From assembly GCA_937873275.1 (NCBI GenBank), contig CALMRC010000051.1, positions 1,057 to 65,056 on the forward strand: DNA of 64,000 bases, read 5' to 3'. This DNA comes from an uncultured Spirochaetota bacterium (GTDB taxonomy: Bacteria; Spirochaetota; Spirochaetia; Treponematales; UBA12059). Every line of letters starts with the position of its first letter. Positions within the stretch are counted from its first letter, which is position 1. The notes under the pieces are model-generated. The model was not told the DNA's origin. It worked only from the letters and a program-made list of their open reading frames with translations, and ran no database searches. Below are positions 7,379 through 32,970 of the stretch, one piece after another. The position numbers and the translations under genes were made by a program.

Positions 7379-7379
7379 G

Positions 7380-11116: not shown

Positions 11117-11715
11117 GCCCGGACCCTTTCGACCGCCGCCGGGATTCCGGCCTCCTCCAACGCGGCGGCCAGGCCCGCGGCGTCCACGAACCGGTGGGAC
11201 CGGATGCCCAGGGACTCGGCGGCCCGCACGTTCTCCTCCATGTCGTCCGTGAAGAAGACCCGGCCGGGGTCCCGCCCCTCGGCCTCCAGGATGCGGAGCC
11301 AGAACTCCCCCCGGGGCTTGGAAACCCCCAGAAGGTGGGAGGCGTACACGGCGTCGAAGCAGTCGTAGTATCCGCGGTCCCGGAGCCAGTCGTAGTGGAC
11401 GTCGATCGTGTTGGTGCCGCACACGACCCGGCCGAATGGCCGCAGGGAACGGGCCAGGGCTTCCGAAGCAGAGTCCAGGACGGGCCGGAAGAGGGTGTCC
11501 CAGTAGTTCTCCGGGACCCGGATCCCGGATCGGGCCCGGAACCGCTCCCAGTATTCCCCGGCACCGATCCGCCCGGACATATAGTCCTCCATGTCCGGGC
11601 GGGCCAGGTCCCGCATACGGTCCTCCGGCAGGCCCAGGAGCCGGGCCGCCTCGGGAAGGATGTCGAAGTCCCGGACGAGGACGCCTCCCAGGTCGAACAC
11701 GAAGAGGTCGATCAT
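11113..11715 (-). CDS. HAD-superfamily hydrolase
   Basis: 200 aa beginning MIDLFVFDLGGVLV (DxDG-type motif I) with a later FFTDD motif. ATGA overlap with the upstream permease stop. Confidence 0.75.
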   Translation of the reverse strand: MIDLFVFDLGGVLVRDFDILPEAARLLGLPEDRMRDLARPDMEDYMSGRIGAGEYWERFRARSGIRVPENYWDTLFRPVLDSASEALARSLRPFGRVVCGTNTIDVHYDWLRDRGYYDCFDAVYASHLLGVSKPRGEFWLRILEAEGRDPGRVFFTDDMEENVRAAESLGIRSHRFVDAAGLAAALEEAGIPAAVERVRA

Positions 11716-17781: not shown

Positions 17782-19922
17782 CGGTTTTCGCCTTCCTGGC
17801 CCCCCCGGTACTCCTCACCCTCTGGATCCGGGCCCGGCCCCGTATCCGGGGCACCGCCTGGAGCCGGTACTTCCTGATCGTGGCCGGATTCTTCTCGGTC
17901 TTCACGGTCTCCATGGGGATCGCCTACATCTCCGCACAACCCTACGCGGAAACCCAGGCGGTCCCCCTCTTCCTGACCCGACTGGCCGCGGCCGCCGCCG
18001 CCGCGGGATACATAGCCCTGTTCCGGGTCTGCCTGACCTTTCCCTACGATTCCAAGAACGCCGCGGCCGACCTCCTGGCCGTGGCGGCCACGGCGGCCGT
18101 TTTCGCCCTGAACCTCGGGACGGAGCTCTACGTCCGCCACGTGGAACGGGTCAACCTGGACTTCATCCGGCACGAGGGTCCCCTGTACGGGGCCGTCACC
18201 GTCGGCGCGGCGGGCCTGGGATTCCTGGGGGCGATCCTTCTGACGTTCCGCAGCTTTTCCATGCGCAGCCGCATCTACCAGCAGCAGAGCCGGATCCTGG
18301 CCCTGGGCATCGTCGTCAGCATCGTGGTGGGGTTCCTGCTGGCCATCCGGCTGCCCCAGGTCCTCCGGATCGGGGCCTTCTACCTCCTTTCCACCCTAAG
18401 CCCCATCATCCTGGGGGTGGGCTACTATTTCGCGGTCTCCATCTCCCGGATCTTCGCCTGGAAGGAGGTAGGCCGCAGGGTCCTGTCCTACCTCCTCCTG
18501 CTCACCCTGACGGGGATTCCCGTGGGGTGGGCCTCGGCCGCGATCCTGCGCGCCGGCCTGCCGGCGTCGAGCGCGGCGGGGTTCGTGTTCCTGATCTTCG
18601 CCCTGGGGGCCTACCTGGCCTCCGCCTTCGTGAACCGCTTCCTGGACCCCATCGCGGGCCGGAGGAAATACCGCGAGGCCCTCCAGGACGCCCTGGCCCG
18701 GGTGGACCTTTCGGGAGGCCGGGACACGGTCCTCCGGCAGGTCCACTCCATCCTCTCGGAGCCCCTCGAGTTCCGGGATCTCGCCATCCTCGTGGCGGAC
18801 GACGAGGGGGCCCTTCGGCCCGTGTTCTCGACCTTCGGCACCGAGCGGACCCTCCCGGGGGATTCCCGGGCCCTGCGGGAGTTGGCCCGCACGGGAGTCA
18901 CGGTCTTGCTGAAGACCGAGGTCGTGGCCAACCGGGCCTACGCGGTGTTCAAGAAGGAATTCCTGGAGATCTTCGAATCCTATCGGGCGGAGGCCCTGAT
19001 CGCGGTCCGGGAAGGCCGGGAAACCCTCGGCATCCTGGCCCTGGGAGCCCGCTCCTCCGGGGGCGACTACACCGCCTACGACTACGAGACCCTGCGGTCC
19101 ATCTACGGAAAGCTGTTCGTGGTCCTGTATTACGTGAAGAACATAGCCCGGGAATCCATCCTGAGCACCGTGGACCGGGAGATCGCCTACTCCAGCCAGG
19201 TGATCGAATCCATCCAGGGGAACGTGGACCGGATCGACCACCCCAAGGCGGACGCCCACTTCCTGGCCCGGTCCACCCGGAAGCTCGGGGGCGACTTCAT
19301 CGACTTCCTCCGGCTGAGCTCGGACCGGTATTTCTTCGTGGCCGGGGACGTCTCCGGCAAGGGCCTGAACGCCTCCATGTCCATGATCATCCTGAAGACC
19401 ATGATCCGGACCTTCCTCAAGGAGGAAAAGGACTTCACCCGGATCGCGGAGCGCGCGAACGCCTTCATCAAGGACAACCTCCCCCGGGGGACCTTCTTCG
19501 CGGGGATCTTCGGGTACTTCGATTTCGCGAAGGACTCCCTGTACTTCATCAACTGCGGGATCCCCGTCCTCTTCCTGTATTCCCCGGTGTTCAACACGAT
19601 CATCGAGATCCAGGGGGAGGGACGGGTGCTCGGATTCGTCCGGGACATCCGGCCCTACCTGAAACTCCGGCGGGTCCCCCTGGCCTCGGACGCCGTCCTC
19701 CTCCTTTCCACGGACGGGATCCTGGATTCCGAGAATCTCCGGGGGGAACGGTACGGCAAGGAACGTCTCCAGAGATCCTTCTCGAACCACCGGGGAAAAT
19801 CCGCCCGGGAACTCGCGGAGGGTGTGGTCGCCGACCTGCTGGCCTTCACGGACGACCGGCTGGAGGACGACATCACCGTCTTCGCGCTGAAATACGACAC
19901 CCAAGCCAGGAGCCCGACATGA
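17772..19922 (+). CDS. polytopic-membrane sensor fused to PP2C/SpoIIE phosphatase
   Basis: 716 aa. The N-terminal ~330 aa are hydrophobic and multi-TM, followed by a central sensor-like region and a SpoIIE domain (GGDFIDF...GDVSGKGLNASM...STDGILD). It overlaps the previous gene by 10 nt. Confidence 0.8.
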   Translation: MGLTVFAFLAPPVLLTLWIRARPRIRGTAWSRYFLIVAGFFSVFTVSMGIAYISAQPYAETQAVPLFLTRLAAAAAAAGYIALFRVCLTFPYDSKNAAADLLAVAATAAVFALNLGTELYVRHVERVNLDFIRHEGPLYGAVTVGAAGLGFLGAILLTFRSFSMRSRIYQQQSRILALGIVVSIVVGFLLAIRLPQVLRIGAFYLLSTLSPIILGVGYYFAVSISRIFAWKEVGRRVLSYLLLLTLTGIPVGWASAAILRAGLPASSAAGFVFLIFALGAYLASAFVNRFLDPIAGRRKYREALQDALARVDLSGGRDTVLRQVHSILSEPLEFRDLAILVADDEGALRPVFSTFGTERTLPGDSRALRELARTGVTVLLKTEVVANRAYAVFKKEFLEIFESYRAEALIAVREGRETLGILALGARSSGGDYTAYDYETLRSIYGKLFVVLYYVKNIARESILSTVDREIAYSSQVIESIQGNVDRIDHPKADAHFLARSTRKLGGDFIDFLRLSSDRYFFVAGDVSGKGLNASMSMIILKTMIRTFLKEEKDFTRIAERANAFIKDNLPRGTFFAGIFGYFDFAKDSLYFINCGIPVLFLYSPVFNTIIEIQGEGRVLGFVRDIRPYLKLRRVPLASDAVLLLSTDGILDSENLRGERYGKERLQRSFSNHRGKSARELAEGVVADLLAFTDDRLEDDITVFALKYDTQARSPT

Positions 19923-20245
19923 ACCAGCTCAACATCGAGGAGCGCCGGGAGGGGACCTTCACGGTCCTGGTCCTGACCGGCCCCGTGAACAGCTACACCT
20001 TCACGGAGTTCCAGGACCGCGTCTACCGAACCGTACGGGAAACCGACACGGCGGTGGACATGGAACACGTCACGACCCTTTCCTCCGCCGGCCTCGGCGC
20101 CCTCATGGTGGCCCTGGAGGACGCGGAGGCCGCGGGCAAGAAGCTCTGGATCCTGAAGCCCTCCGAGATCGTCCGGCTGGCCATCGAGTCCACCGGATTC
20201 TCGGACCGGTTTCCCGTAACCCGGACCCTCAAGGGCCTGGCCTGA
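19919..20245 (+). CDS. STAS-domain anti-sigma-factor antagonist (SpoIIAA/RsbV-like)
   Basis: 108 aa with a candidate phospho-serine context (VTTLSSAGLGAL). ATGA overlap with the phosphatase stop. Confidence 0.8.
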   Translation: MNQLNIEERREGTFTVLVLTGPVNSYTFTEFQDRVYRTVRETDTAVDMEHVTTLSSAGLGALMVALEDAEAAGKKLWILKPSEIVRLAIESTGFSDRFPVTRTLKGLA

Positions 20246-20732: not shown

Positions 20733-20839
20733 ACTGGTCCCCGGTGTCGCGCGGCAGGCTCGCGAATTCGGCCGGCGGCGCTTCGCCCAGGACGGAAGCC
20801 GTGTGCGTCCGTAATGTCCCAAATGTGAAGGAAACCTTC

Positions 20840-21922
20840 ATGAAATCCAAGATTTCCGTCGTCCTCATCGGCATCCTTCTGGTACTGGCCGTGGCCGGCT
20901 GCGCGAAGAAAGAAGCTCCGGCTCCCGCCGCCCCGTCCATGAAGGTCGGCATGGTCACCGACGCCGGCACCATCGACGACAAGTCGTTCAACCAGGGAAC
21001 CTGGGAAGGCGTCCTCCGCGCCGGCACCGAGTTCAAGCTGGACACCAAGTACCTGAAGCCCTCCGGGACCACCGAGGCGGATTACCTCAAGGAAATCGGC
21101 AACCTCTACGATGCGGGCTACAAGTTCATCGTGACCCCGGGCTTCAAGTTCGAGACCACCATCTTCCAGGCCCAGACCAAGTACGCGGACGCCAAGTTCG
21201 TCCTGATCGACGGCAGCCCCCACGCCGGGGACTGGAAGAACGTGGTCGGTCCCAACACCGTGTCCATCTTCTTCGCGGAGCACGAGTCCGGCTTCGTGGC
21301 CGGCGTCGCCGCCGCCCTCCAGATGAAGACCGGGTCCTTCGGCTTCATCGGCGGCATGGAGATTCCCCCGGTCCAGAAGTTCAATTGGGGCTTCCAGCGG
21401 GGCGTAGACTACGCGAACAAGAACCTGGGAACCAAGATCACCATCAAGGCCGAGAACGTGATCTACCAGGGCTCCTTCGACAACGTGGCCGCGGGCCAGC
21501 AGATCGCCGCCTCCATGTACGACAAGGGCGTCACCGTGATCTTCGCGGCCGCCGGCGGCGTGGGCGTGGGCGCCATCAACGAGGCCAAGGCCCGGGCCAC
21601 CGCGGGCAAGACCGCCTGGATCGTGGGCGTGGACGTTGACCAGTACGCCGACGGCATCTACACCGGCGACAAGTCCGTCATCCTGACCAGCGCCATGAAG
21701 CGCATCGACGTGGCCGCCTTCGACATGATCAAGGCCGAGCTGGACAAGACCTTCCCCGGCGGGAAGACCCTCACCTTCGACGCCAAGAACAACGGCGTCG
21801 GCATCCCCGCCAAGAATCCCAACCTCGCCCCCGAAGTCCAGGCCAAGGTCGAGGAGATCTTCAAGCTCATGCAGAACGGAACCATCACGGTTCCCGCCGA
21901 CCAGGGCACCTTCATCAAGTAG
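20840..21922 (+). CDS. BMP-family (PnrA/TmpC-like) nucleoside-binding ABC lipoprotein
   Basis: Start ATG 20840 with lipoprotein signal MKSKISVVLIGILLVLAVAGC. It contains the BMP-family pattern (VTDAGTIDDKSFNQ...). Confidence 0.85.
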   Translation: MKSKISVVLIGILLVLAVAGCAKKEAPAPAAPSMKVGMVTDAGTIDDKSFNQGTWEGVLRAGTEFKLDTKYLKPSGTTEADYLKEIGNLYDAGYKFIVTPGFKFETTIFQAQTKYADAKFVLIDGSPHAGDWKNVVGPNTVSIFFAEHESGFVAGVAAALQMKTGSFGFIGGMEIPPVQKFNWGFQRGVDYANKNLGTKITIKAENVIYQGSFDNVAAGQQIAASMYDKGVTVIFAAAGGVGVGAINEAKARATAGKTAWIVGVDVDQYADGIYTGDKSVILTSAMKRIDVAAFDMIKAELDKTFPGGKTLTFDAKNNGVGIPAKNPNLAPEVQAKVEEIFKLMQNGTITVPADQGTFIK

Positions 21923-21944
21923 GAATCCGCCCCGGCAATCCAGG

Positions 21945-21975
21945 GCCGCCGCCGCGAGGCGGCGGCTTTTTTCTT
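21945..21975 (+). terminator. intra-operon rho-independent terminator/attenuator after the BMP lipoprotein gene
   Basis: GCCGCCGCC-GCGA-GGCGGCGGC followed by TTTTTTCTT. It lies between the binding-protein gene and the ATPase gene. Confidence 0.7.
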
Positions 21976-22084
21976 GTCGAGCCCCCGGGGGGCGGATTAT
22001 ACTGCTGTTCCGAAACCCGCGGCCGTCCGCGGGACGTTCGACGCCAAGGGGGCCCCCCTCCTTGGCCCGCGCCAAGGAGAGGGC

Positions 22085-23611
22085 ATGGAATACATAGTCG
22101 AGATGCTCCACATCACCAAGGACTTCCCCGGAATACGCGCCAACGACGATATCACCGTGCAGCTCCGGAAGGGCGAGATCCACGCCCTCCTGGGGGAGAA
22201 CGGGGCGGGCAAGTCCACCCTGATGAGCATCCTCTTCGGCCTGTATCGGCCGGACGCCGGGGTCATCAAGGTCCGGGGCAACGAGGTGGCCATCCACAAC
22301 CCCAACGTGGCCAACGCCCTGGGCATCGGCATGGTCCACCAGCACTTCAAGCTGGTTCACAACTTCACGGTCACGGAGAACATCATCCTGGGGATGGAAC
22401 CCACCGTAGGCCCCATGCTTCAGACCCGGGACGCCGCCAAGCGGATCAAGGCCCTGTCCGAGCAGTACGGCCTGAACGTGGATCCGGACGCCAAGATCGA
22501 GGACATCTCCGTGGGGATGCAGCAGCGGGTGGAGATCATCAAGATGCTCTACCGCAACGCGGAAGTGCTCATCTTCGACGAGCCCACCGCCGTGCTGACG
22601 CCCCAGGAAATCACGGACCTCATGCAGATCATTCGGAACCTGATCAAGGAGGGAAAATCCATCCTCCTCATCACCCACAAGCTCAAGGAGATCAAGGCCA
22701 TCGCGGACCGCTGCACCGTCATTCGGCGCGGCAAGGTCGTCGACACCGTGGACGTCGCGGACGTGGCGGAGTCCCGGATGGCGGAGATGATGGTGGGTCG
22801 CACGGTTAACTTCACCGTGGACAAGCGGGACCAGGAGCGGGGCGAGGCGGTCCTGTCGATCCGGAACCTGAACGTACTGTCCAGCCGCAAGACCCAGGCC
22901 TTGAAGAATTTCTCCCTCGACGTGCACCGGGGGGAGATCCTAGGTCTGGCGGGGGTGGACGGCAACGGCCAGACCGAGCTGGTGGAGGCCTTGACCGGTC
23001 TGCGCAAGGTGGAATCCGGCTCCATCCTCTTCAAGGGCCGGGACATCACCCACGACGACATCCATTCCCGGGTGATGGCCGGCATGGCCCACATCCCCGA
23101 GGACCGGCAGAAGCGGGGCCTGGTCCTGGACTACACCATGGAGGACAACTTCATCCTGGAGATCTACGGCCGCGAGCCCTATTCGCATAAGGGGTTCCTG
23201 AATCGCAAGGCCATCCGGGACCACGCGGAAAAGCTGATCCGGGACTTCGACGTCCGATCCGGCCAGGGCGCCCTCTCCATGGGCCGGACCCTCTCCGGGG
23301 GAAACCAGCAGAAGGCCATCGTGGGCCGGGAGATCGACCACGACCCCGAGCTGCTCCTGGCGGTACAGCCCACCCGGGGATTGGACGTGGGATCCATCGA
23401 GTACATCCACAAACGGCTAGTGGAGCAGCGGAACAACGGCAAGGCGGTACTCCTGGTCTCCCTGGAGCTGGACGAGATCATGGATCTCTCCGACCGGATC
23501 GCGGTGATCAGCCACGGGGAGCTTACGGGCGTCAAGCTGCCGAAGGAGACCAACGAGAGCGAGATCGGCCTCATGATGGCCGGGATCGCGGGCGCGGGAG
23601 GGACGGAATGA
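22085..23611 (+). CDS. ABC transporter ATP-binding protein with two NBDs (nucleoside/simple-sugar type)
   Basis: Start ATG 22085 behind AAGGAGAGG. Two Walker A sites are present (GENGAGKST and GVDGNGQTE), along with LSGG signatures. Confidence 0.9.
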   Translation: MEYIVEMLHITKDFPGIRANDDITVQLRKGEIHALLGENGAGKSTLMSILFGLYRPDAGVIKVRGNEVAIHNPNVANALGIGMVHQHFKLVHNFTVTENIILGMEPTVGPMLQTRDAAKRIKALSEQYGLNVDPDAKIEDISVGMQQRVEIIKMLYRNAEVLIFDEPTAVLTPQEITDLMQIIRNLIKEGKSILLITHKLKEIKAIADRCTVIRRGKVVDTVDVADVAESRMAEMMVGRTVNFTVDKRDQERGEAVLSIRNLNVLSSRKTQALKNFSLDVHRGEILGLAGVDGNGQTELVEALTGLRKVESGSILFKGRDITHDDIHSRVMAGMAHIPEDRQKRGLVLDYTMEDNFILEIYGREPYSHKGFLNRKAIRDHAEKLIRDFDVRSGQGALSMGRTLSGGNQQKAIVGREIDHDPELLLAVQPTRGLDVGSIEYIHKRLVEQRNNGKAVLLVSLELDEIMDLSDRIAVISHGELTGVKLPKETNESEIGLMMAGIAGAGGTE

Positions 23612-24660
23612 GCCGCTTCAAGAATCTTTTCACCGCCCTGGCCGCGGTGGTCCTGGGACTCCTGGCCGGCGCGGTCTTCATGGCCCTCTCCGGATCCAAC
23701 CCCCTCGCGGGTTTCTACTACCTCTTCCGCGGAGGGCTGATGAACATGGAGCGCATCGGCAACACCCTTGCCTCCGCAACGACCCTCGTGTTCACCGGCC
23801 TGGCCGTGGCCTTCTCCTTCAAGACCGGCTTGTTCAACATCGGAGCCTCCGGCCAGATGCTCATGGGGGGACTCACGGCCACCGCCATCGGGCTGTCCGT
23901 CCAGATGCCCCGGATGATCCTCCTGCCCCTGATCGTCCTGGCCGCCGCGGCGGCCGGAGCCCTCTGGGCCGCGATTCCGGGCTTCCTCAAGGCCAAGTTC
24001 AACGTCCACGAGGTGGTGGCGACCATCATGATGAACTGGATCGCCTACTGGACCGTGTACTACACGATCCCGGCCTATTTCAAAGGCACCTTCCTGGAGA
24101 CCGAATCCCGGCGCATCCCCGCCCTGGCGTCCTTCCGGGTCGAATGGCTCACGAACATCTTCCGGGGTTCCTACATCAACATGGGCGTCTTCCTGGCCCT
24201 GACCGCGGTGATCGTCATCGCGATCATCCTGGAAAAGACGACCCTGGGCTTCGAGCTCAAGGCCGTGGGCTTCAACCGGTATGCCGCGGAATACGCGGGC
24301 ATCCACGTCCCCAAGAACATCGTACTGTCCATGTCCATCTCGGGAATCCTCGCGGGCCTGGCGGGGGCCACCTACTATTTGGGATACGCGGTGAACATGC
24401 AGATCGGCGTCGTACCCTCGGCGGGCATCGACGGCATCGCCGTGGCGCTCCTCGGGGCCAACAGCCCCTGGGGCGTACTCGCCTCCTCCCTGTTCTTCGG
24501 GATCCTCCACTCGGGGAAGGGTTTCATGAACGCCATGACCAAGGTTCCGCCGGAGATCGGGGACACCATCATCGCCATCATCATCTACTTCGCCGCGACG
24601 GGCGTGCTATTCACCCGCCTCTGGGAACGCATCACGCGGAAGTGGAACAAGGAGGCCTAG
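23608..24660 (+). CDS. ABC transporter permease (BMP-type system)
   Basis: 350 aa, multi-TM. It has a 4-nt overlap with the ATPase gene. Confidence 0.85.
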   Translation: MSRFKNLFTALAAVVLGLLAGAVFMALSGSNPLAGFYYLFRGGLMNMERIGNTLASATTLVFTGLAVAFSFKTGLFNIGASGQMLMGGLTATAIGLSVQMPRMILLPLIVLAAAAAGALWAAIPGFLKAKFNVHEVVATIMMNWIAYWTVYYTIPAYFKGTFLETESRRIPALASFRVEWLTNIFRGSYINMGVFLALTAVIVIAIILEKTTLGFELKAVGFNRYAAEYAGIHVPKNIVLSMSISGILAGLAGATYYLGYAVNMQIGVVPSAGIDGIAVALLGANSPWGVLASSLFFGILHSGKGFMNAMTKVPPEIGDTIIAIIIYFAATGVLFTRLWERITRKWNKEA

Positions 24661-24661
24661 G

Positions 24662-25615
24662 ATGCATACCCTCGCCTTGATCTTCCCCTACGCCGTCGCC
24701 TTCACCGTACCCCTGCTGGCCGCATCCTTGGGGGGCCTGTTCAGCGAGCGCTCCGGCGTGGTGAACATCGGCCTCGAGGGGCTGATGGTATCGGGCTCCT
24801 TCACCTGCGCCGTCGTTGCCAGCCGCATGGAGACGGTACTGGGTCCCGGAAATCCCGGCGCGCTCTGGATGGGCCTGGGAGCGGCCGTGGTCGTGGGGGC
24901 CCTCTTCTCCCTGCTCCACGCCTTCGCCAGCATCAGCCTCAAGGCCAACCAGGTCATCAGCGGCACGGCGATCAACATGATCGCCGGATCCCTGACGGTC
25001 TTCCTGGCCCGGACCATGACCGGGTCCGGGAACGTCCGGATCGTCCTGGGCTTCATCCCCTCGGACATCCCGGTCCTCTCGGGCATACCGATCCTGGGTC
25101 CCCTGTTCTTCACGAAGACGTACGCCACCACCTGGCTGATGGCCGCGGTCCTGGCCGTCGCCTGGTTCGTCATCTACAAGACCCCCTTCGGCCTGCGCCT
25201 CCGGGCTTGCGGGGAACACCCCCAGACCGCCGACGCGGCGGGTATCAACGTCTACCGCATGCGCTACATCGCGGTGGTGCTGTCCGGCGCCCTGGCGGGC
25301 TTGGCGGGCGGGATCATCCTGGTGACCTATTCCGGGGAGTTCAACGGAAACGTCGCGGGCCTGGGCTTCCTGGCCCTGGCGGCCCTGATCTTCGGGCAGT
25401 GGAAACCCCTGGGCATCCTGGGGGCCACGGCCTTCTTCGGGTTCGCGGCCACGATCGCCAACGTCTCCCAGGTGATTCCCCAGTTCTCCCGGATACCGGG
25501 TCTCCTCTTGAAGGCCTTCCCCTACGTGGTCACCCTGATCGCCCTGGTCCTCTTCTCCAAGAGCAGCCAGGCGCCCCGGGCCTCGGGGGAGCCCTTTGAC
25601 CAGGGCAAACGATGA
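24662..25615 (+). CDS. ABC transporter permease (BMP-type system)
   Basis: 317 aa, multi-TM. It directly follows the first permease. Confidence 0.85.
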   Translation: MHTLALIFPYAVAFTVPLLAASLGGLFSERSGVVNIGLEGLMVSGSFTCAVVASRMETVLGPGNPGALWMGLGAAVVVGALFSLLHAFASISLKANQVISGTAINMIAGSLTVFLARTMTGSGNVRIVLGFIPSDIPVLSGIPILGPLFFTKTYATTWLMAAVLAVAWFVIYKTPFGLRLRACGEHPQTADAAGINVYRMRYIAVVLSGALAGLAGGIILVTYSGEFNGNVAGLGFLALAALIFGQWKPLGILGATAFFGFAATIANVSQVIPQFSRIPGLLLKAFPYVVTLIALVLFSKSSQAPRASGEPFDQGKR

Positions 25616-25628
25616 GTTTTCCGGAATA

Positions 25629-25728
25629 GCGCCGGGCCGCGGGCCCGGCGGCAACGAAGCCCTTCGGGCTTCGTCGAACCTCACGATTATTCCGGCAGCT
25701 CCGATACGATCGCGACGCCGTTGGACGC
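25629..25728. repeat. solo copy of the hairpin-hairpin-relic repeat unit
   Basis: GCGCCGGGCCGCGGGCCCGGCGGC (9-bp stem), then ACGAAGCCC-TTC-GGGCTTCGT hairpin, spacer and relic. The same module occurs at 32.0-32.3 kb in the same orientation. Confidence 0.75.
25687..25728 (-). pseudogene. relic of a deoC2-type 3' end (ASNGVAIVSELPE-stop) on the far side of the BMC locus
   Basis: Minus-strand reading GCG TCC AAC GGC GTC GCG ATC GTA TCG GAG CTG CCG GAA TAA, preceded by an in-frame stop. 35/42 nt are identical to 32284-32325 by hand alignment, and 5 of the 6 coding differences are synonymous. Confidence 0.7.
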
Positions 25729-25799
25729 TCATCTCCGGCGCGCGAAAAAATCGGCCCCCGAACACCGGGGGCCGCTTCGTATTCGGAGGATCGGAACCC

Positions 25800-26582
25800 T
25801 CAGTAGCCGCTTCCCAGGGACTGGCCGCTCACCAGGGTGACGCCCTGGCTGGTGCCCAGGCGGTTCGCGCCGGCGTCCAGCATGGCCAGGGCGTCGTCGA
25901 AGCTGCGGATCCCGCCGGCGGCCTTTACTCCCACGGAGGGTCCCACGGTCCGGCGCATCAGCGCGACGTCCGCGACCGTGGCGCCGGACTTGGAGAATCC
26001 CGTCGAGGTCTTCACGAAATCCGCGCCCACGTCCTTCGCGACCTGGCAGGCCAGGACCTTCTCGGCGTCCGTGAGGAGGCAGGCCTCGATGATGACCTTG
26101 AGGACGATGCCGACGCGGCAGGCCCGGCGGACCGCCAGCATGTCCTCCCGGACGGCCTTGAGGTCACCGGCCTTCAAAGCCCCGATGTTCATGACCATGT
26201 CGACCTCGGACGCCCCGTTCGAGACGGCGGTCCGGGCCTCGAAGGCCTTCGAACGGCTGTCCATGGCCCCCAGGGGGAAGCCCACGACCGTGCAGACCTT
26301 GACGCCCGTTCCGCCCAGGCGCCGGGCGCAGCGCTCCACCCAGGTCGAGTTCACGCAGACGGAGGCGAAGCGGTGCTTGGCCGCCTCGTCGCACAGGACG
26401 TCGATCTGGTCCTCCGTGGCCTCGGGCTTTAGGAGGGTGTGGTCGATGAAGGGCGCCAGCTCGGCCGGTTCCATCCGGGGCCGCGCGGGCCCCTCGTCGT
26501 TCGGAACCTCGACCGCCCGGGTCCCCATCCTCGCCAGGACTTCCTGCACGATCCTCTCGATTACCTTTTCCTCGTCCGTCAT
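25800..26582 (-). CDS. deoC: deoxyribose-phosphate aldolase with N-terminal encapsulation-peptide-like extension (DeoC1)
   Basis: Start ATG 26580-26582, with an ATGA overlap with the rpiB stop. The first ~45 aa ([20 protein letters not shown] plus a P/G-rich linker) precede the DERA core [11 protein letters not shown]...VCVNS...KTSTGF...VKAAGGIR. Confidence 0.85.
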
Positions 26583-27070
26583 CCTTCGAAGCCTCCACGC
26601 TCCAGGGCCATGATCTTGTTTATCCTGACGATGTGGCGGCCCCCGGCGAACCGGGTCTCCAGCCACACCTTCACCATCTCGGTCAGGCGGTCCGGCGTAT
26701 GCAAGGGGCCGCCCAGGGTCAGGACGTTCGCGTTGTTGTGCTCCCGGCTGTTCACCACGGTCCGGAGGTCGTAGCACATCGCCGCGCGGATGCCCCGAAC
26801 CTTGTTCGCGGCCATGCAGGAACCGATGCCCGCCCCGTCCAGGACGATCCCCCGCTCGCAGGCCCCGCTCTTCACCTTCCGGCACACCGCCAGGGCGATG
26901 TCGGGATAGTCCACCTTCTCGGTCCCGAAGGTCCCGACGTCGGTCACCCGATACCCCAGGACCTCGAGATAGCGGACCAGGAGGGTCTTCTGCTCGACCG
27001 CCCCGTGGTCCGCGCCGATCGCCACGTTCCGCACCACGTCCGCGGGGGCGGACCCTTCCTCGGCGCTCAT
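26579..27070 (-). CDS. rpiB: ribose-5-phosphate isomerase B / sugar-phosphate isomerase (RpiB/LacAB family)
   Basis: Start ATG 27068-27070, with an ATGA overlap with the BMC-P stop. Core is VAIGADHGA...[10 protein letters not shown]...GGRH. Confidence 0.85.
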
Positions 27071-27348
27071 TCGTCCCCTCCCATGTCGATCCGGTCCACG
27101 ATCCCGCACACCGCCGTCCGCACGGTCACCGCCCCCTCGTCCTCCACGACGGTCCGGGCGGATCCGCCCTCGTCCACGACCAGCACGAGGTCCCCGATCC
27201 CGGCCTGGACCCCGTCCACGGCCAGGAGGGTCTTGCCCCGGGGACTCCCGTCGGGATCCACGGGACGGACCGCCAGGATCTTCTTTCCCGTGTAGCGGGG
27301 GTCCTTTTCCGTGGAGACGACGCTCGCCACGACCTTGGCCAGGATCAC
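27067..27348 (-). CDS. BMC-P (EutN/CcmL-family) shell vertex protein, paralog 4
   Basis: GTG start at 27346-27348, with a GTGA overlap with the paralog 3 stop. The 93-aa product reads (M)[14 protein letters not shown]...[16 protein letters not shown]...[10 protein letters not shown], an EutN-like pattern. Confidence 0.75.
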
Positions 27349-27623
27349 GGGGCGCCTCCCCGGTCCACCGCGTCCACCACGCCCAGGATCGCGGCGTCCG
27401 CCGGGTTGAACCACCCGTTCGGGTTCGCCTGGGCGGCCTCCTTGCCGGACTCGAAGATCACCAGGTCCCCCTCGCCCGCCCGGGCGGTGTCGAAGGCCAC
27501 CAGGGGAGGCCCCGCGGAGGCGCCGGTCTCGTCGACGGGCTGGACCAGGAGGAGCTTGAGCCCCTCGAAGCATTCCATCTTGCGGGTGCTGACCACCCGG
27601 CCGATAACCTTTCCGAGCTTCAT
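27345..27623 (-). CDS. BMC-P (EutN/CcmL-family) shell vertex protein, paralog 3
   Basis: ATG 27621-27623 behind GGAAGG. The 92-aa product reads MKLGKVIGRVVSTRK...LLLVQPVD...AILGVVDAVD. Confidence 0.8.
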   Translation of the reverse strand: MKLGKVIGRVVSTRKMECFEGLKLLLVQPVDETGASAGPPLVAFDTARAGEGDLVIFESGKEAAQANPNGWFNPADAAILGVVDAVDRGGAP

Positions 27624-27634
27624 CGCGGGCCTTC

Positions 27635-29074
27635 CTAGACGATCCGGAAATAGTCGACCAGGGTGCACCGCCGCTCCCGGGTGAAGGACGTGGGCCGGGT
27701 GATCCCCTCGCCCGTGGGGCTCGCGATCGTGAAGGACGCGTGGCCCGCGCCCCCCTGGCCCAGCCCCGCGTAGCAGGGTCCGTTCTTGACGAAGAGGGAG
27801 CAGTCCATGGCCCGGGCCATGTGCGAGAGGCGGGCCACGTCGTGGGAGTGCATGATCGCGGTGTGCCGGTACCCGTGCTCCGCCAGGACCGCGAACTCGA
27901 TGGCCTCGTCGGCGTTCCGCATCCGGACGAAGGGGATCACCGGCATGAGCTGTTCCGTCCAGACCAGGGGGTGTCCGCTCGTCGTCTCCATTAGGAGGAT
28001 CCGGGCGCTCTCGGGCACCTCGATCCCGGCCGCCTTGGCGATGAAGGCCGGGCTCTTGCCCACGAAGGCCCGGTTCGGGGAGCCCGGCCGGCCGGGCCCG
28101 CCCGGCTCGGCGATGATTAGCTTGGTGACCGCGTCGATCTGGGAGCCCTTGAGCTCGTAGGCCCCGTTCCGCAGGAGCTCCTCCTTGAGGCGGTCCGCGA
28201 TGGAGGCGACCGCCAGGATCTCCTTCTCGCAGATGCACACCACGTTGTGGTCGAAGCCGGCCCCGTCCACGATGTCCTTGCCGGCCTTGGCCAGGTCGGC
28301 GGTCTCGTCGACGACGCAGGGAGGGTTCCCGGGGCCCGCGCAGATGGCCTTCTTGCCGCTGGCCATGGCCGCGCGCACGACCCCCGGACCCCCGGTGACC
28401 ACGAGGAGGGCAATCCCGGGGTGCCGCATGAGCTCTCCGGCGGTCTCCAGGGTCGGCTCGGCCACGGCGCACAGGAGGTTTCCGGGCCCCCCGGCCCGGA
28501 CGACCGCCCCGCCGAGCATCTCGATGAGCAGGCGGGAGACGCCCTTGGCGCCGGGGTGCACGTTGAACACGACGGAGTTCCCCGCGGCCACCATCCCGAT
28601 GGCGTTGCTCGCGATCGAGGATATGGGGTTCGTCACCGGGGTGATCGCTCCGATCACCCCGTAGGGGGCCAGCTCCGTGAGGGTGAGACCGTGCTCGTCC
28701 GTGACCACCCGGGACTGGAGATCCTCGACCCCCGGGGTCCGGAGGGCGGCCAGCTCGTTCTTTATCGTCTTGTCCCGGACGTTGCCCAGGCCCGTCTCCG
28801 CGACGGCGGCCTGGCTCAGGGCCTCGTTGGCCTCCAGGACGGTCCGGCGGATCGCTTCGATCACGGCCCGCCGGGTGTCCAGGGGCAGCCGGACGAGCTC
28901 CCGCTGGGCCGCCTGGGCCGCCTGGACGGCGGAATCCATGTCCGGGAAGATACCCGGACCCCGGGCCGTCGCCGGGCCCCCGCCCTTCGCACCCGAGGAC
29001 AGGAGGGCGGCGATCTCCGGGGATCGCAGGATCTCCTCGACCACCCGACGAATATCCTCCGCGCCGTACGCCAT
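27635..29074 (-). CDS. CoA-acylating aldehyde dehydrogenase (PduP/EutE-like) with N-terminal encapsulation-peptide-like helix
   Basis: 479 aa with the ALDH fold and a catalytic Cys context (HNVVCICEKE). The C-terminus is typical of the family (RRCTLVDYFRIV). The N-terminus is MAYGAEDIRRVVEEILRS followed by a Gly/Pro linker. Confidence 0.85.
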   Translation of the reverse strand: MAYGAEDIRRVVEEILRSPEIAALLSSGAKGGGPATARGPGIFPDMDSAVQAAQAAQRELVRLPLDTRRAVIEAIRRTVLEANEALSQAAVAETGLGNVRDKTIKNELAALRTPGVEDLQSRVVTDEHGLTLTELAPYGVIGAITPVTNPISSIASNAIGMVAAGNSVVFNVHPGAKGVSRLLIEMLGGAVVRAGGPGNLLCAVAEPTLETAGELMRHPGIALLVVTGGPGVVRAAMASGKKAICAGPGNPPCVVDETADLAKAGKDIVDGAGFDHNVVCICEKEILAVASIADRLKEELLRNGAYELKGSQIDAVTKLIIAEPGGPGRPGSPNRAFVGKSPAFIAKAAGIEVPESARILLMETTSGHPLVWTEQLMPVIPFVRMRNADEAIEFAVLAEHGYRHTAIMHSHDVARLSHMARAMDCSLFVKNGPCYAGLGQGGAGHASFTIASPTGEGITRPTSFTRERRCTLVDYFRIV

Positions 29075-29377
29075 CTATAGCCCCCGTTCCGACTCGTTCC
29101 AGAGCGTGGTTCCGCCGGAGTCCACCGAGTCCACGATCCCCACCGCCAGGGTGTCCATGGGAGCGTTCTCGGTCCGGTAGGTCCAGCGGCAGGAACTGCC
29201 CTGGGTCAGCATCACCAGCTGGCCCCGCTCCGCCCCCACCATGTCCAAGGCCACCAGGTAGTCCCCCCGCCCGGAGCCTTCGGGGCCGCAGTCCTCCACC
29301 AGGAGGTACCGCGCGCCCTCAAGTCCGTCGGATCGCCGGGAGGCGACCACGGTTCCCCGGACCCTCGCCAAGGTCAT
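29075..29377 (-). CDS. BMC-P (EutN/CcmL-family) shell vertex protein, paralog 2
   Basis: 100 aa, MTLARVRGTVVASRR...LVALDMVGAERGQLVML...AVGIVDSVD. The stop directly abuts the AldDH ATG. Confidence 0.8.
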   Translation of the reverse strand: MTLARVRGTVVASRRSDGLEGARYLLVEDCGPEGSGRGDYLVALDMVGAERGQLVMLTQGSSCRWTYRTENAPMDTLAVGIVDSVDSGGTTLWNESERGL

Positions 29378-29676
29378 TCGGACCGGGCCTTCTCGTAGGT
29401 GTACGATCCGTCCTTCTCGATCGCGTCCACCACGGCGATCACCGTCGCGTCCGTGGGGCGGCCCTTGGTCGCCTCCGTGAGGCGGGCGCTGGAGCCGGTG
29501 ACGTAGAATACGACCTCCCCGGCGTTGGCCCCGACGGAATCCATGGCGACCACGAAGTCGCCCTTGCCCGCGAGGCTTACCGGATCGATCTTCTCGAGGA
29601 GGAGCAGCCGGAGCCCCTCCATGGAGGGGCTCTTGTGGGTGGAGACGACGGTCCCCCGGACCCGGGCGATCAGCAT
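29374..29676 (-). CDS. BMC-P (EutN/CcmL-family) shell vertex protein, paralog 1
   Basis: 100 aa, MLIARVRGTVVSTHK...VVAMDSVGANAGEVVFYV...VIAVVDAIE. ATGA overlap with paralog 2. Confidence 0.85.
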   Translation of the reverse strand: MLIARVRGTVVSTHKSPSMEGLRLLLLEKIDPVSLAGKGDFVVAMDSVGANAGEVVFYVTGSSARLTEATKGRPTDATVIAVVDAIEKDGSYTYEKARSE

Positions 29677-29686
29677 GGGGACGACC

Positions 29687-29995
29687 CTATTTCCGAGGAG
29701 GCGCCGGCTTCCTGCCCAGGGGCAGGGCCGCCTCCACGGACTCGTGGGGCCGGGGAATCACGTGGGTCGAGATGACCTCCCCGACCTTCTCCGCGGACCG
29801 GGCCCCGGCGTCGACGGCCGCCCGGCAGGCGGCGACGTCCCCGCGCACGATGGCGGTCGCGTACCCGCCTCCGATCTTCTCGTAGCCGATCAGGTCGACC
29901 TTCGCCGCCTTGACCATCGCGTCCGCGGCCTCCACCATCGCCGCGAAACCCCGCGTCTCGATCATGCCGAGCGCGTCGTTCGTTGTATCCGCCAT
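29687..29995 (-). CDS. BMC-H hexameric shell protein (PduA/EutM-like)
   Basis: 102 aa, [57 protein letters not shown]...HVIPRPH. This is a canonical single BMC domain. Confidence 0.9.
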
Positions 29996-30032
29996 ATCCG
30001 CTCCTTAATAAGGGCGTCCCCGCCGGGGGCGC

Positions 30033-30674
30033 CTAGATCCTCTGGGTTCCGGCCCCGATCGTCCGGCCGGTCAGGCCCTCCAGGCGGGCCTCCACGGTCT
30101 TCCGGGCCTCGATCACCTCGGCCTCGTCCCCGGCTATGTACACGCGCCCGAAGGCCCCGAAGCCGAGCACCTCCACGATGTTCACCCGGGCGGTCTTCTC
30201 GGCCTCGTTGGCCGCGTAGTACGCGTAACCCGCGGGCTCCACCTCCAGGACGTACAGGGTGTCCCCCCGGAGGACCATGTTCCCGTGGCGGACCTTGTTG
30301 ATCAGCTGGGCGTGGTGGTCCGAGACGTTCTTGATGAGCTGGCTCGTGAGGACCCGGGGCTTGAGCCGATCCTCCTCCTTGAGGCCGAGCTCCCGCAGGA
30401 CGGCCTCCCCGGCCGTTCGGGCGTCGCCCTGGCGGTCGGAATGGACCTCCAGGAGGCCGTAGGCCCGCTCCACGATCTGGAGCCCCGGGGTCACGTTGGT
30501 CGCCTTGAGGGCGATGTCCGTAAGGCGGTTGATCTCGATGCCGGGAGCGATTTCGATGATGCAGCAGGCCTGGAACCCGACCGGGTAGTAGCCCTTGCTC
30601 ACCGTGGCGATGAAGGAGGCGTTCTGGAGCTGGAGGGAGTCCAGGAACACGTAGGTCCGAAGGTCGATGTTCAT
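30033..30674 (-). CDS. BMC-T tandem-domain shell protein (subclass not resolved)
   Basis: 213 aa with two BMC-like halves (DIALKATNVTPGLQIVERAYGLLEV and NEAEKTARVNIVEVLGFGAFGRVYIAGDEAEV). The N-terminus LRTYVFLDSLQLQ is reminiscent of trimer-forming BMC-T proteins. Confidence 0.7.
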   Translation of the reverse strand: MNIDLRTYVFLDSLQLQNASFIATVSKGYYPVGFQACCIIEIAPGIEINRLTDIALKATNVTPGLQIVERAYGLLEVHSDRQGDARTAGEAVLRELGLKEEDRLKPRVLTSQLIKNVSDHHAQLINKVRHGNMVLRGDTLYVLEVEPAGYAYYAANEAEKTARVNIVEVLGFGAFGRVYIAGDEAEVIEARKTVEARLEGLTGRTIGAGTQRI

Positions 30675-30677
30675 GGA

Positions 30678-30974
30678 TCAGTCCCCCTTCCGGCCCAGGG
30701 GCAGGGCCTCGTCCACGGAGGCGTGGGGCCGGGGGATCACGTGGGTCGACACGACCTCTCCGACCTTCTCCGCGGACCGGACTCCCGCGTCCACGGCGGC
30801 CCGGCAGGCCGCGACGTCCCCGCGGACGACGACCGTGACGTAGCCGCCGCCGAGCTTCTCGTATCCCACCAGGTCGACCTTCGCGGCCTTGACCATCGTG
30901 TCGGCGGCCTCCACCATGGCCGCGAATCCTTTCGTCTCGATCATGCCGAGAGCGTCGTTCGTCGATCCAGACAT
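30678..30974 (-). CDS. BMC-H hexameric shell protein (PduA/EutM-like), first gene of operon
   Basis: 98 aa, [57 protein letters not shown]...HVIPRPH. GGAGGG RBS. Confidence 0.9.
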
Positions 30975-31065
30975 ACACCCTCCTGGTGCGCCGCGGCGGC
31001 CCGGGGCGTCCGCTCCGCCCTCCCGGGAACCCGGCCGACTGGATCCCTCACCGGGATCGCCCTGA

Positions 31066-31094
31066 AGTATAGAGGATGGAATGTTTCAGGTCAA
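31066..31094 (-). promoter_or_regulatory. sigma70-like promoter TTGACC-N17-TATACT for the BMC operon
   Basis: Minus-strand reading is TTGACC TGAAACATTCCATCCTC TATACT. It lies ~90 nt upstream of the first BMC-H ATG. Confidence 0.55.
31077..31088. promoter_or_regulatory. candidate DeoR operator half-palindrome TGGAATGTTTCA (inside BMC promoter spacer)
   Basis: It is a near copy, in inverse sense, of TGGAACATTTCA at 31122-31133. The motif is TGrAACATTyCA. Confidence 0.4.
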
Positions 31095-31121
31095 GCAATC
31101 GGCCGGAAAATATGGTATAGT

Positions 31122-31133
31122 TGGAACATTTCA
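31122..31133. promoter_or_regulatory. candidate DeoR operator TGGAACATTTCA (adjacent to deoR -10)
   Basis: This is the second copy of the 12-mer, 45 bp from the first. It is flanked by the direct repeats ATGGTATA (31112-31119 and 31133-31140). Confidence 0.4.
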
Positions 31134-31142
31134 TGGTATACT
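31134..31142 (+). promoter_or_regulatory. extended -10 (TGgTATACT) candidate promoter for deoR
   Basis: CATGGTATACT. No good -35 was found, so it is classed as extended -10. Confidence 0.35.
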
Positions 31143-31231
31143 TTTCTCATCGGGGCTCGAGGCCGATTCCTCCGGATACCGGGCCGGACCCCGGACATTT
31201 CGAGCGGGCCGAACGCGGGTGGAGACGGGGC

Positions 31232-32008
31232 ATGACCAAAAGCGAACGATGGAACGCGATCATGAGGCGCCTGGGATTCGAGACGGCGGCAAGCATCCTG
31301 GAGCTGTCCCGGGACCTCGACGTGTCCCCCATGACCGTGCGCAGGGACCTGGCCGCCCTGGCCCGGGAGGGCAAGGTCCGGGTCCTGTACGGCAGCGCCA
31401 TGCTCCATCCGGACCTGGCCCGCCGGGAGAGCGAGACCTACTACTCCCTCAACGCCGCGGGAGCCGAGCACGCGGAGGAGAAGCGCAGGATCGGGAAGGC
31501 GGCCGCGGCCCTCGCCGAGCCGGGGGACGGCCTCATCGTCGACTGCGGGTCCACGACGGAGTACGTGGCCCGGTACCTCTCCGAGGAGGCGGAGTACACC
31601 GTCCTGTGCTACTCCCTGAACGTCGTGTCCGAGCTCGTCCGGAGGAGGAACTGCCGAACGCTCTTCTCGGGGGGGGAGTTCCACGAGAACACCCTGATGT
31701 TCGAAAGCCCCGAGGGCCTCGAGGCCATCCGGCATTTCCGGGCCAGCAAGGCCTTCCTCTCCGCCTCCGGCGTGGACGCCAAATTCGGGGTGACCTGCAG
31801 CAACGCCTACGAGCGGGAGACCAAGAAGGCCGTGATCCAGTCCTCCCTGCGCAAGATCCTGGTGGTGGACTCCTCGAAGTTCGGGGCCGTCCGCCCGGCC
31901 TACTTCGCGGACCTGGCGGATTTCGATGAGATCGTCACGGATCCGGGAATACCCGACGAGTACCGGAGGATCGCCGAGGAGCGGGGTCTCCGCCTGACCA
32001 TCGTCTAG
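31232..32008 (+). CDS. DeoR-family transcriptional regulator
   Basis: Start ATG 31232. N-terminal HTH is ERWNAIMRRLGFETAASILELSRDLDVSPMTVRRDLAAL, with a C-terminal DeoR sugar-phosphate sensor domain. It is divergent from the BMC operon. Confidence 0.85.
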   Translation: MTKSERWNAIMRRLGFETAASILELSRDLDVSPMTVRRDLAALAREGKVRVLYGSAMLHPDLARRESETYYSLNAAGAEHAEEKRRIGKAAAALAEPGDGLIVDCGSTTEYVARYLSEEAEYTVLCYSLNVVSELVRRRNCRTLFSGGEFHENTLMFESPEGLEAIRHFRASKAFLSASGVDAKFGVTCSNAYERETKKAVIQSSLRKILVVDSSKFGAVRPAYFADLADFDEIVTDPGIPDEYRRIAEERGLRLTIV

Positions 32009-32283: not shown

Positions 32284-32880
32284 CTACTCCGGCAACTCCG
32301 ATACAATTGCGACGCCGCTGGAGGCTCCTATCCGGTCCGCGCCGGCTTCCAGGAGCTGGATGGCGTCGTGGTAGGTACGGATGCCGCCGGAGGCCTTGAT
32401 GCGGAGATCCCGATCCCCGATCGTACCCCGAAGGAGCCGGATGTCCTCCACGCTCGCGCCCCCGGTCCCGAAGCCCGTGCTCGTCTGGACGTATCGGGCG
32501 CCGGCCCGGATCGCCGCCTCGCAGGCGCGGGCCTTCTCGGACTCGCCCAGGTAGCAGGTCTCCAGGATCACCTTCACCGCCGCCGGTCCGGATGCCTGGA
32601 CGACCCCCCGGATGTCCTCCTCCACCGCCTTCCAGTCCCCGGACTTGGCGGCGCCGAGGTTGATCACCATGTCGACCTCCCCCGCGCCCGACTGGACGGC
32701 GAGGCGGGCTTCCTCCGCCTTGGATTCCGGATCGCTCGCCCCCAGGGGAAATCCGATCACGGAACAGACGGTGATTCCGCTGCCCGCGAGCTTGCGGAGG
32801 CAGAAGCGGATCCAGTAGGGGTTCACGCAGACGCCGAAGAACCCGAACGCGCGGGCCTCGGCGCAATGCTCCTCCAGCAT
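32284..32880 (-). CDS. deoC: deoxyribose-phosphate aldolase paralog without targeting extension (DeoC2); true 5' end unresolved
   Basis: 198 aa from the first ATG, with DERA core VCVNP...VQTSTGF...IKASGGIR. The conserved N-terminal strand (AELAKAIDHSLLKAFGTER) is encoded in-frame upstream of that ATG, with no ATG/GTG/TTG available. Confidence 0.7.
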   Translation of the reverse strand: MLEEHCAEARAFGFFGVCVNPYWIRFCLRKLAGSGITVCSVIGFPLGASDPESKAEEARLAVQSGAGEVDMVINLGAAKSGDWKAVEEDIRGVVQASGPAAVKVILETCYLGESEKARACEAAIRAGARYVQTSTGFGTGGASVEDIRLLRGTIGDRDLRIKASGGIRTYHDAIQLLEAGADRIGASSGVAIVSELPE

Positions 32881-32970
32881 CCGTTCCGTGCCGAAGGCCT
32901 TGAGGAGGCTGTGATCGATCGCCTTGGCCAGTTCGGCCCGGGTCCAATGCTTCGTAGAAAGCTCCTTTCG

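Follow-up and report, generated by a model that had tools for sequence, protein, structure and literature searches.

A 64,000-nucleotide stretch of contig CALMRC010000051.1 from an uncultured Spirochaetota bacterium (positions 1,057 to 65,056; its full length is referred to here as the window) was found to carry a bacterial microcompartment (BMC) operon of ten tightly packed genes. The operon lies on the minus strand and runs from position 30974 to 25800, and Pfam assignments (Table 1) define a shell set of two BMC-H proteins, one CcmP-like BMC-T(dp) protein and four BMC-P proteins. The cargo genes encode a CoA-acylating aldehyde dehydrogenase (AldDH), an RpiB-like protein plus DERA (deoxyribose-5-phosphate aldolase, DeoC). 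Neither a phosphotransacylase (PTAC) nor an alcohol dehydrogenase (ADH) that could recycle CoA and NAD+ for these enzymes was detected in the window.

Table 1. Features of the BMC operon and of its surroundings in the window.
Feature	Position	Strand	Basis and remarks
Putative promoter, TTGACC-17-TATACT	31066..31094	-	sigma-70-like consensus match only; lies between the operon and the divergent DeoR gene
BMC-H 1, 98 aa	30678..30974	-	PF00936, E = 1.6e-31, full-length single domain
BMC-T(dp), tandem BMC domains, CcmP-like, 213 aa	30033..30674	-	Pfam and structure-chain matches
BMC-H 2, 102 aa	29687..29995	-	PF00936, E = 3.1e-31
BMC-P 1 (EutN/CcmL pentamer), 100 aa	29374..29676	-	PF03319, E = 4.4e-25
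BMC-P 2, 100 aa	29075..29377	-	PF03319, E = 8.3e-24
CoA-acylating AldDH, 479 aa	27635..29074	-	PF00171; N-terminal encapsulation peptide
BMC-P 3, 92 aa	27345..27623	-	PF03319, E = 4e-24
BMC-P 4, 93 aa	27067..27348	-	PF03319, E = 3.2e-23
RpiB-like protein, 163 aa	26579..27070	-	PF02502 (LacAB_rpiB), E = 1.6e-48
DERA/DeoC, 260 aa, signature enzyme	25800..26582	-	PF01791; N-terminal encapsulation peptide
Intrinsic-terminator-like hairpin and T-run	25752..25774	-	directly after the DERA stop codon
DeoR-family regulator, divergent	31232..32008	+	PF00455 (E = 4e-45) and PF08220
Second DERA paralogue, untagged	32284..32955	-	52% identical to the tagged DERA; beside the DeoR gene
Bmp/PnrA-type ABC importer	20825..25615	+	binding protein PF02608, double ATPase PF00005 x2, two permeases PF02653 x2
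Acetyl-CoA hydrolase/transferase family gene	46641-47951	+	neighbours are KAS-III-like genes (two) and a double TetR regulator

As the G+C content of the window is ~67%, genes were called with a codon-usage model trained on long open reading frames (ORFs) and not by ORF length. By this means ~65 genes were called, and all were scanned against Pfam, the flanking genes being concatenated in blocks. Long antisense ORFs (e.g. 24632-25765, minus strand) were ruled out as genes by their codon statistics. All ten operon ORFs are intact and score strongly as coding sequence, with close spacing or 4-nt overlaps between them, and the identities given to AldDH, RpiB, the tagged DeoC and a BMC-T in the initial annotation were borne out by the Pfam matches. 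The two BMC-H proteins have near-identical cores, and the four PF03319 genes are arranged as two adjacent pairs. The rpiB-like gene is directly upstream of the DERA gene, with a 4-nt overlap, and it is with the latter gene that the shell operon ends. The promoter-like site upstream of the first BMC-H gene matches the consensus at 10 of 12 positions and is the sole such site in 25400-31400, where shuffled sequences gave a mean of 0.3. The terminator-like hairpin, which has a 10-bp stem with 9 G-C pairs and the tail ATTTTTT, is located between the DERA gene and a convergent permease gene. Since these two elements bound the unit, there is no other gene in the predicted transcription unit.

The AldDH matched a solved chain named 'Aldehyde dehydrogenase' (5jfl) with E = 4e-131, which we take to be a BMC-associated CoA-acylating enzyme. 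Its core aligns with the 4c3s chain from about residue 41, which places ~40 N-terminal residues outside the catalytic core, and the Cys of its NVVCICEKE segment is aligned to the template Cys (LPCVAEKE). Within the N-terminal segment, residues 8-16 (IRRVVEEIL, nt 29027-29053) form an encapsulation peptide (EP), followed by a Gly/Pro/Ala-rich linker to about residue 44. The DeoC protein matched the solved DERA 5dbu (E = 1.9e-78), and as this match starts only at residues 41-42, the protein has an N-terminal extension of ~40 residues. Its EP is likewise at residues 8-16 (IERIVQEVL, nt 26535-26561), with a linker of ~25 residues behind it. The lysine of the VKTSTGF segment, taken to be the Schiff-base lysine of DERA, is conserved in 72 of 72 orthologues. 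As judged by these alignments, the catalytic residues of both DERA and AldDH are intact. Both tags are amphipathic and fit exactly the motif [IV]xR[IV]VxE[IV]L that the initial annotation had put forward, and when the motif was relaxed, AldDH and DERA were still the only proteins within the 64 kb to carry it in a real reading frame.

In the RpiB-like protein the core is preceded by only ~15 residues, among which no EP helix was recognisable. Compared with RpiB of C. thermocellum (3he8), the catalytic ICGTG segment is replaced by LDGAG (VLDGAGIG), such that the catalytic Cys is changed to Asp and the neighbouring Thr to Ala. The Asp was found in 73 of 73 orthologues and the Ala in 71 of the 73. 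In an alignment of these 73 sequences (the window and L004-L083), 33 of 176 columns (19%) are invariant, and they take in every canonical active-site position (Asp, His, His, Asn, Arg, His, Arg). This pattern would be expected of a maintained binding or active site and not of a decaying relic, and slightly favours an unrecognised activity or a ligand-binding role over that of a pure scaffold. In the SPU6 type of BMC, a ribose-5-phosphate isomerase homologue (RPI) in which the Cys is likewise replaced by Asp binds DERA at ~1:1 and has little or no ribose 5-phosphate isomerase activity; the DERA is active, and the RPI is without effect on its kinetics (PMC11585597). The RpiB-like protein of the window probably binds DERA as the SPU6 pair does, which would offer a possible route for packaging of an untagged protein. 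The role of RpiB beside DERA, described as unexplained in the initial annotation, has been answered in part by the experiments on the SPU6 RPI-DERA complex (PMC11585597).

The T protein aligned end to end with 5v76, a shell T protein of H. ochraceum (E = 2.2e-72), with CcmP (5lsr and 4ht5, E ~2e-70) and with CsoS1D (1.9e-48). The best solved matches were therefore 5v76 and CcmP, ahead of CsoS1D and the RMM T proteins. Its orthologues carry PF27545 (CsoS1D_N). The protein has tandem permuted BMC domains and the Glu/Arg gating pair, Glu69-Arg70, which is invariant in 69 of 69 orthologues. On the strength of these matches, the 213-residue protein is assigned as a double-stacking BMC-T(dp) and not as a PduT-like or EutL-like trimer. 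At ~60% identity to the solved proteins, its trimers would be expected to stack face to face and the pore to open to ~14 A.

The absence of recycling enzymes was assessed in three ways, with the 64-kb window as the scope of the search. Among the ~65 window genes, the Pfam scan detected no PF06130 (PduL), PF01515 (Pta), PF00465 (Fe-ADH) or PF00107/PF08240 (Zn-ADH), and no PduS, triose-phosphate isomerase (TPI) or further BMC domain, BMC-T(s) included. All stop-to-stop ORFs of at least 40 codons in six frames of the 64 kb were also searched with phmmer, using Pfam-verified seeds from related loci, and no match to PduL, Pta, Zn-ADH, PduS, TPI or class II aldolase was obtained. For Fe-ADH, the six-frame screen was a weak one, made with PROSITE-style regular expressions and run without a positive control, and no signature was found in the window; for this family the Pfam scan of the window is the main test. 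The absence of a phosphotransacylase and an ADH from the operon and from the whole 64 kb, as first noticed in the initial annotation, is therefore confirmed by Pfam and by six-frame phmmer. Without PduL or Pta and without a PduQ/EutG-type ADH, the compartment would have no private cofactor pool.

An alignment of AldDH homologues was used to retrieve 80 loci at species level, each flanked by as much as 10 kb on either side. These are from Spirochaetota, Bacteroidales, Moduliflexus, Vecturithrix/KSB3 and Atribacteria, which make up most of the taxon list published for the SPU2 type of BMC, and the closest relative is a Spirochaetes metagenome-assembled genome (MAG) with 95% AldDH identity. The enzyme set and gene order are conserved across ~80 species, the order H-Tdp-H-P-P-(PduS)-(Ts)-(TPI)-AldDH-P-P-RpiB-DeoC being nearly invariant in the relatives, and T(dp) is present in 63 of the 65 loci with enough upstream sequence. 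A complete core, defined as T(dp), AldDH and DeoC together, was found in 66 loci, 45 of which have at least 3 kb on both sides. No PTAC was present in the retrieved sequence of 64 of these 66, and the absence is hence a conserved property of the lineage and not an accident of the contig in the window. The exceptions are an Atribacteria locus (L056), which includes a PduL with a 37-residue N-terminal extension, and a Spirochaetota locus (L072), which includes a Pta. Of the other genes sought in the relatives, PduS was detected in 10 loci, class II aldolase in 6 and TPI in 4. A further 11 counts are for Zn-ADH-like genes, one per locus counted; in most of these 11 loci the genes are placed among sugar-utilisation genes and either are not contiguous with the operon or are on the opposite strand. 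The recurrent flanking families, namely ABC transporters, DeoR and GntR/LacI regulators, short-chain dehydrogenases (SDRs), FGGY kinase and epimerases, included no Fe-ADH.

In several of the related loci (L002/L003 at 6524-8078, L013, L027, L028 and L034), the first BMC-H gene is directly preceded on its own strand by one or two SDR genes. These were considered as NAD+ recyclers and rejected, as the representative examined starts at its Rossmann fold and is untagged, and none is found in the window; sugar catabolism is a possible role for them. According to the literature, a genome usually has a single SPU locus, and the genome of a Candidatus Vecturithrix was found to carry two SPU2-type loci (L034 and L035) ~3 Mb apart on the 7.29-Mb sequence JAXGYF010000001.1.

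The operon of the window belongs to a clade with a smaller gene set than that of other relatives. This clade was defined as the 28 closest loci (L004-L031, AldDH at least 66% identical), 21 of which have adequate upstream coverage. BMC-T(s) and PduS were found in the main operon of none of the 21, whereas among the other relatives (L032-L083) T(s) is present in 32 and PduS in 8 out of 44. An apparent BMC-T(s) in two members of the clade (L018 and L029) was traced to over-extended ORFs around a single-domain BMC-H. The lack of BMC-T(s) and PduS in the clade is a point absent from the published description of SPU2.

The fuller form is represented by L072, in which the Pta has a C-terminal extension of ~50 residues ending in EEEIVELVSEIVAQRIREILDKQA, an EP-like helix. 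A database search with this Pta returned only 10 clusters with full-length coverage (362-402 residues, 65-97% identity) among 5.8 billion proteins, below which the matches fall to ordinary Pta of 330 residues. The tagged Pta is the last gene of an SPU2 operon with PduS and BMC-T(s) in all four loci checked (7144-8277 in L072, 10001-11122 in L084, 10001-11104 in L085 and 7950-9158 in L086). These operons, from a sister Spirochaetota branch, are homologous to that of the window and have the same gene order and the same shell and cargo genes, but insert PduS and BMC-T(s) before AldDH and end with the EP-tagged Pta, all three of which the window operon lacks. As predicted from gene content, the full operons hold an internal CoA recycling enzyme and a candidate NAD+ recycling (electron-export) module, whereas the reduced form has neither.

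Loci of this kind are known. Axen et al. (2014) described SPU as a metabolosome 'with an incomplete core', and Sutter et al. (2021) divided SPU into seven subtypes (PMC8217296). DERA is unique to SPU among BMC types, and the window has this DeoC-type DERA with shell genes, an acylating-type AldDH, an adjacent RpiB (pfam02502) and four BMC-P proteins. According to Supplementary Data 2 of the survey, SPU2 has a limited enzyme set of AldDH, pfam01791 and pfam02502, with PTAC, ADH and TPI in few loci, a P triplet and one extra P, and a CcmP-like T(dp); every AldDh carries an EP, as do about half of the DeoC proteins and a third of those of the RpiB type (PMC8217296). The SPU2 shell also includes a PduT-like BMC-T(s), PduS is present in about one locus in four, and the members are mostly Bacteroidetes and Spirochaetes, with no satellite loci (PMC8217296). 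The window resembles this subtype in its enzyme set of AldDH, DERA and RpiB only, its two similar BMC-H and four BMC-P proteins, its CcmP-like T(dp) and its Spirochaete host. It fits further in having EPs at the N-termini of AldDH and DERA and none on RpiB, and in lacking PTAC, ADH and TPI. The missing recycling enzymes are thus the published norm for SPU2, and the phenomenon, seen here in the most reduced version of a catalogued type, was known before. The initial annotation missed the catalogued type, the incomplete core of which has been in print since 2014.

Taken together, we consider it about 75% probable that the region is a complete and self-contained SPU2-type BMC operon in the most reduced form, running on open cofactor pools, and that the lack of recycling enzymes is a design feature of the whole lineage. 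The gene inventory, both tags, the intact catalytic sites and their conservation, as described above, suggest the following mechanism. Deoxyribose 5-phosphate originating from DNA, plausibly supplied by nucleosides that the adjacent Bmp-type importer takes up, would enter the shell and be cleaved by the EP-tagged DERA to glyceraldehyde 3-phosphate, which would leave the shell, and acetaldehyde. The EP-tagged AldDH would then convert acetaldehyde, CoA and NAD+ to acetyl-CoA and NADH. Given the lack of luminal CoA and NAD+ recycling, acetyl-CoA and NADH would have to exit, and CoA and NAD+ to enter, once per turnover. As the only pore of plausible size is that of the gated BMC-T(dp), the cofactor route is placed there, and this protein is most plausibly the conduit for CoA/acetyl-CoA and NAD+/NADH, with exchange via the gated pore of the double-stacked form. 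Recycling would be left to housekeeping enzymes of the cytosol.

Passage of cofactors through the BMC-T pore was one of three explanations offered in the initial annotation, and is the best supported of them given the CcmP/HO-T3-like T(dp) (E = 2e-72), its invariant Glu-Arg gate, its retention in 63 of 65 loci and a published proposal (PMC11585597). In that work, by Dwyer, Sutter and Kerfeld (2024), SPU operons without PTAC are reported to typically encode BMC-T(dp), and exit of acetyl-CoA through the large pore is proposed (PMC11585597). The third explanation, coupling to glyceraldehyde 3-phosphate as the other DERA product, has no support, as no glyceraldehyde-3-phosphate dehydrogenase (GAPDH), TPI or glycerol-3-phosphate dehydrogenase is present in the 64-kb window. 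Such coupling could not supply NAD+ in any case, because oxidation of glyceraldehyde 3-phosphate consumes NAD+ and does not regenerate it.

Several points weigh against a self-contained operon with open cofactor pools. We know of no BMC-T(dp) for which transit of a cofactor has been demonstrated. The fit to SPU2 is imperfect, since the published subtype has a BMC-T(s) and neither the window nor its clade does, and the assignment was made from descriptive criteria and the taxa of the relatives and not with the hidden Markov model and colour classification of its authors (BMC Caller). In addition, PduS-T(s) and a tagged Pta have been kept in the sister branch. Recycling inside the shell is therefore of use to BMCs of this family, which prompts one to ask how the reduced clade makes up for its lack. 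Finally, the window covers 64 kb of a contig of 69.3 kb (69,312 bp), itself a part of the genome, which leaves room for a satellite with a tagged PTAC, an ADH or PduS-T(s).

A split core of this kind, with an EP-tagged PduL or Pta, an ADH, or PduS and BMC-T(s) whose genes are in a satellite locus at another place in the genome, is the strongest competitor, though an unlikely one. Split and satellite BMC loci exist, and the PTACs of SPU2 relatives are tagged when present, as seen from the extensions of the L056 and L072 proteins. A split locus is also suggested by L077, from a complete 3.53-Mb Spirochaetota chromosome (CP070841.1), which has AldDH-P-P-RpiB-DeoC but lacks, over the upstream 10 kb, BMC-H, T(dp) and the first BMC-P pair, and may thus be such a case; its AldDH matches only from residue 41 and may lack an EP. 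However, nothing in the 64 kb is tagged besides the AldDH and DERA of the operon, and a search over 10 kb around the 21 adequately flanked loci of the window clade gave no such partner genes. With 10 clusters, the lineage of tagged Pta is very small, and the four members checked are all in main operons and none in a satellite. As weak negatives, among the matches listed (best 120) there is no T(s) homologue on the large contigs (0.26-2.4 Mb) of window-clade loci, and no L072-type Pta among the matches listed shares a large contig of the clade. The published survey likewise gives 'no satellite loci' for SPU2 (PMC8217296).

An altered pathway, in which the RpiB-like protein is an active, re-specialised isomerase (e.g. 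of triose or another sugar phosphate) and the chemistry of the lumen is balanced differently, appears improbable. The invariance of the canonical ligand and catalytic positions and of the replacement Asp across the 73 sequences is the pattern of a maintained active site, and RpiB of M. tuberculosis works with a carboxylate base (PMC11585597). Nevertheless, no isomerase regenerates NAD+ or CoA, and the cofactor problem would therefore be left as it is. Deoxyribose 5-phosphate has no C2 hydroxyl and hence is not isomerisable, the SPU6 homologue with the same Asp shows little or no activity and does not affect DERA (PMC11585597), and the argument from GAPDH, TPI, glycerol-3-phosphate dehydrogenase and NAD+ consumption given above applies here also. 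That the operon is a degenerating or mis-assembled remnant, its missing genes reflecting decay or a MAG artefact, could be entertained given the metagenomic source of the contig and the ACG at the start position of the neighbouring untagged DERA, but is effectively refuted by ten intact, tightly spaced ORFs with strong coding statistics, intact catalytic and gate residues, identical architecture in dozens of independently assembled genomes, and the finding of each operon protein sequence exactly in independent public sources, in clusters labelled as Spirochaetia or Spirochaetales MAGs.

Returning to the reading of a complete reduced operon, a more far-reaching form of it can be put forward tentatively. 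The window clade may constitute a distinct 'open-cofactor' SPU2 sub-variant that has shed T(s), PduS and the tagged Pta, which a sister branch retains at equivalent places in the operon, with obligate and stoichiometric traffic of CoA/acetyl-CoA and NAD+/NADH through T(dp). Its RpiB-like protein, with an invariant active site that has Asp for Cys, possibly acts on an as yet undiscovered substrate and is not a dead scaffold. In that event, a comparison of the full operons with the reduced ones would amount to an experiment made by nature on the passage of dinucleotide cofactors through BMC-T(dp).

Some neighbouring genes may be linked to the operon. The divergent DeoR-family protein is probably its regulator, and a DeoR cluster adjoins 14 of the related loci. 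The Bmp/PnrA importer converges on the end of the operon in the window, the same cassette directly follows DeoC on the same strand in a 76%-identical relative (L001/L005, 4179-8889), and a Bmp gene is also near the L014 locus (11390-12400). The importer is likely a nucleoside uptake system that feeds the compartment, the predicted substrate being taken from the family name. The second, untagged DERA is presumably cytosolic. At its start position is an ACG, 6 nt after a perfect AAGGAG Shine-Dalgarno sequence, whereas the untagged DERA of two relatives (L018 and L024) begins with ATG (MPxxWTK..., 223 residues). The first canonical start, an ATG at 32880, would remove the first beta-strand (IDHSLLK), and the ACG may reflect initiation at a non-canonical codon, loss of the start codon or an error in sequencing.

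The acetyl-CoA hydrolase/transferase family protein was considered as a CoA-recycling partner and rejected, given its distance of 16 kb from the operon, its TetR and KAS-III neighbours and the lack of an EP. It matches the N-terminal domain of its family from residue 6, and is probably unrelated to the compartment. Upstream of the importer, two consecutive genes (16387-19922, plus strand) encode large membrane proteins with C-terminal SpoIIE/PP2C phosphatase domains, and are followed, just before the transporter, by a gene for a STAS-domain protein (19919-20245). This group looks like a partner-switching signalling module.

The supply of CoA and NAD+ in metabolosomes without a phosphotransacylase or ADH is a real question that the field has posed since 2014, and the present locus is another example and not a new kind of system. 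Its modest value is comparative, as the reduced skeleton of the window and at least 21 related species can be set against the full form with PduS, BMC-T(s) and a tagged Pta. The T(dp) gate is invariant in both forms, and the pairing would be useful for tests of the cofactor permeability of BMC-T(dp) or for the design of minimal aldehyde-trapping compartments.

Among other known systems, SPU6 of Chloroflexi (PMC11585597) is similar to the window in having DERA as signature enzyme, the Cys-to-Asp change in RPI, no PduS and usually no PTAC, and a BMC-T(dp) that is the proposed exit route for acetyl-CoA. It differs in that the EP is on RPI, whereas in the window it is on DERA and none is on RpiB. 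The T(dp) of SPU6 falls in another clade, adjacent to EUT3, while that of the window is CcmP-like; the SPU6 BMC-H is of the 'pink' type, and by the published tree its AldDH lineage is not that of the window. With the PDU and EUT types, the window shares the BMC-H/T/P shell, an EP-tagged acylating AldDH and the confinement of a volatile aldehyde released by a signature enzyme. The phosphotransacylase (PduL or Pta) and the PduQ/EutG-type ADH (pfam00465) of the canonical PDU/EUT core are absent from the window, the signature enzyme is an aldolase that requires neither B12 nor radical chemistry, unlike those of PDU and EUT, and the shell includes a BMC-T(dp), which PDU1 and EUT1 lack. The T protein itself is most like CcmP/CsoS1D and T2/T3 of Haliangium ochraceum, with full-length alignment (E ~1e-70) and the Glu-Arg gate pair, and has the length of CcmP, the alignment starting from residue 1 of both. 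Unlike the carboxysomal CcmP and CsoS1D, it is part of a catabolic organelle for sugar phosphate and aldehyde.

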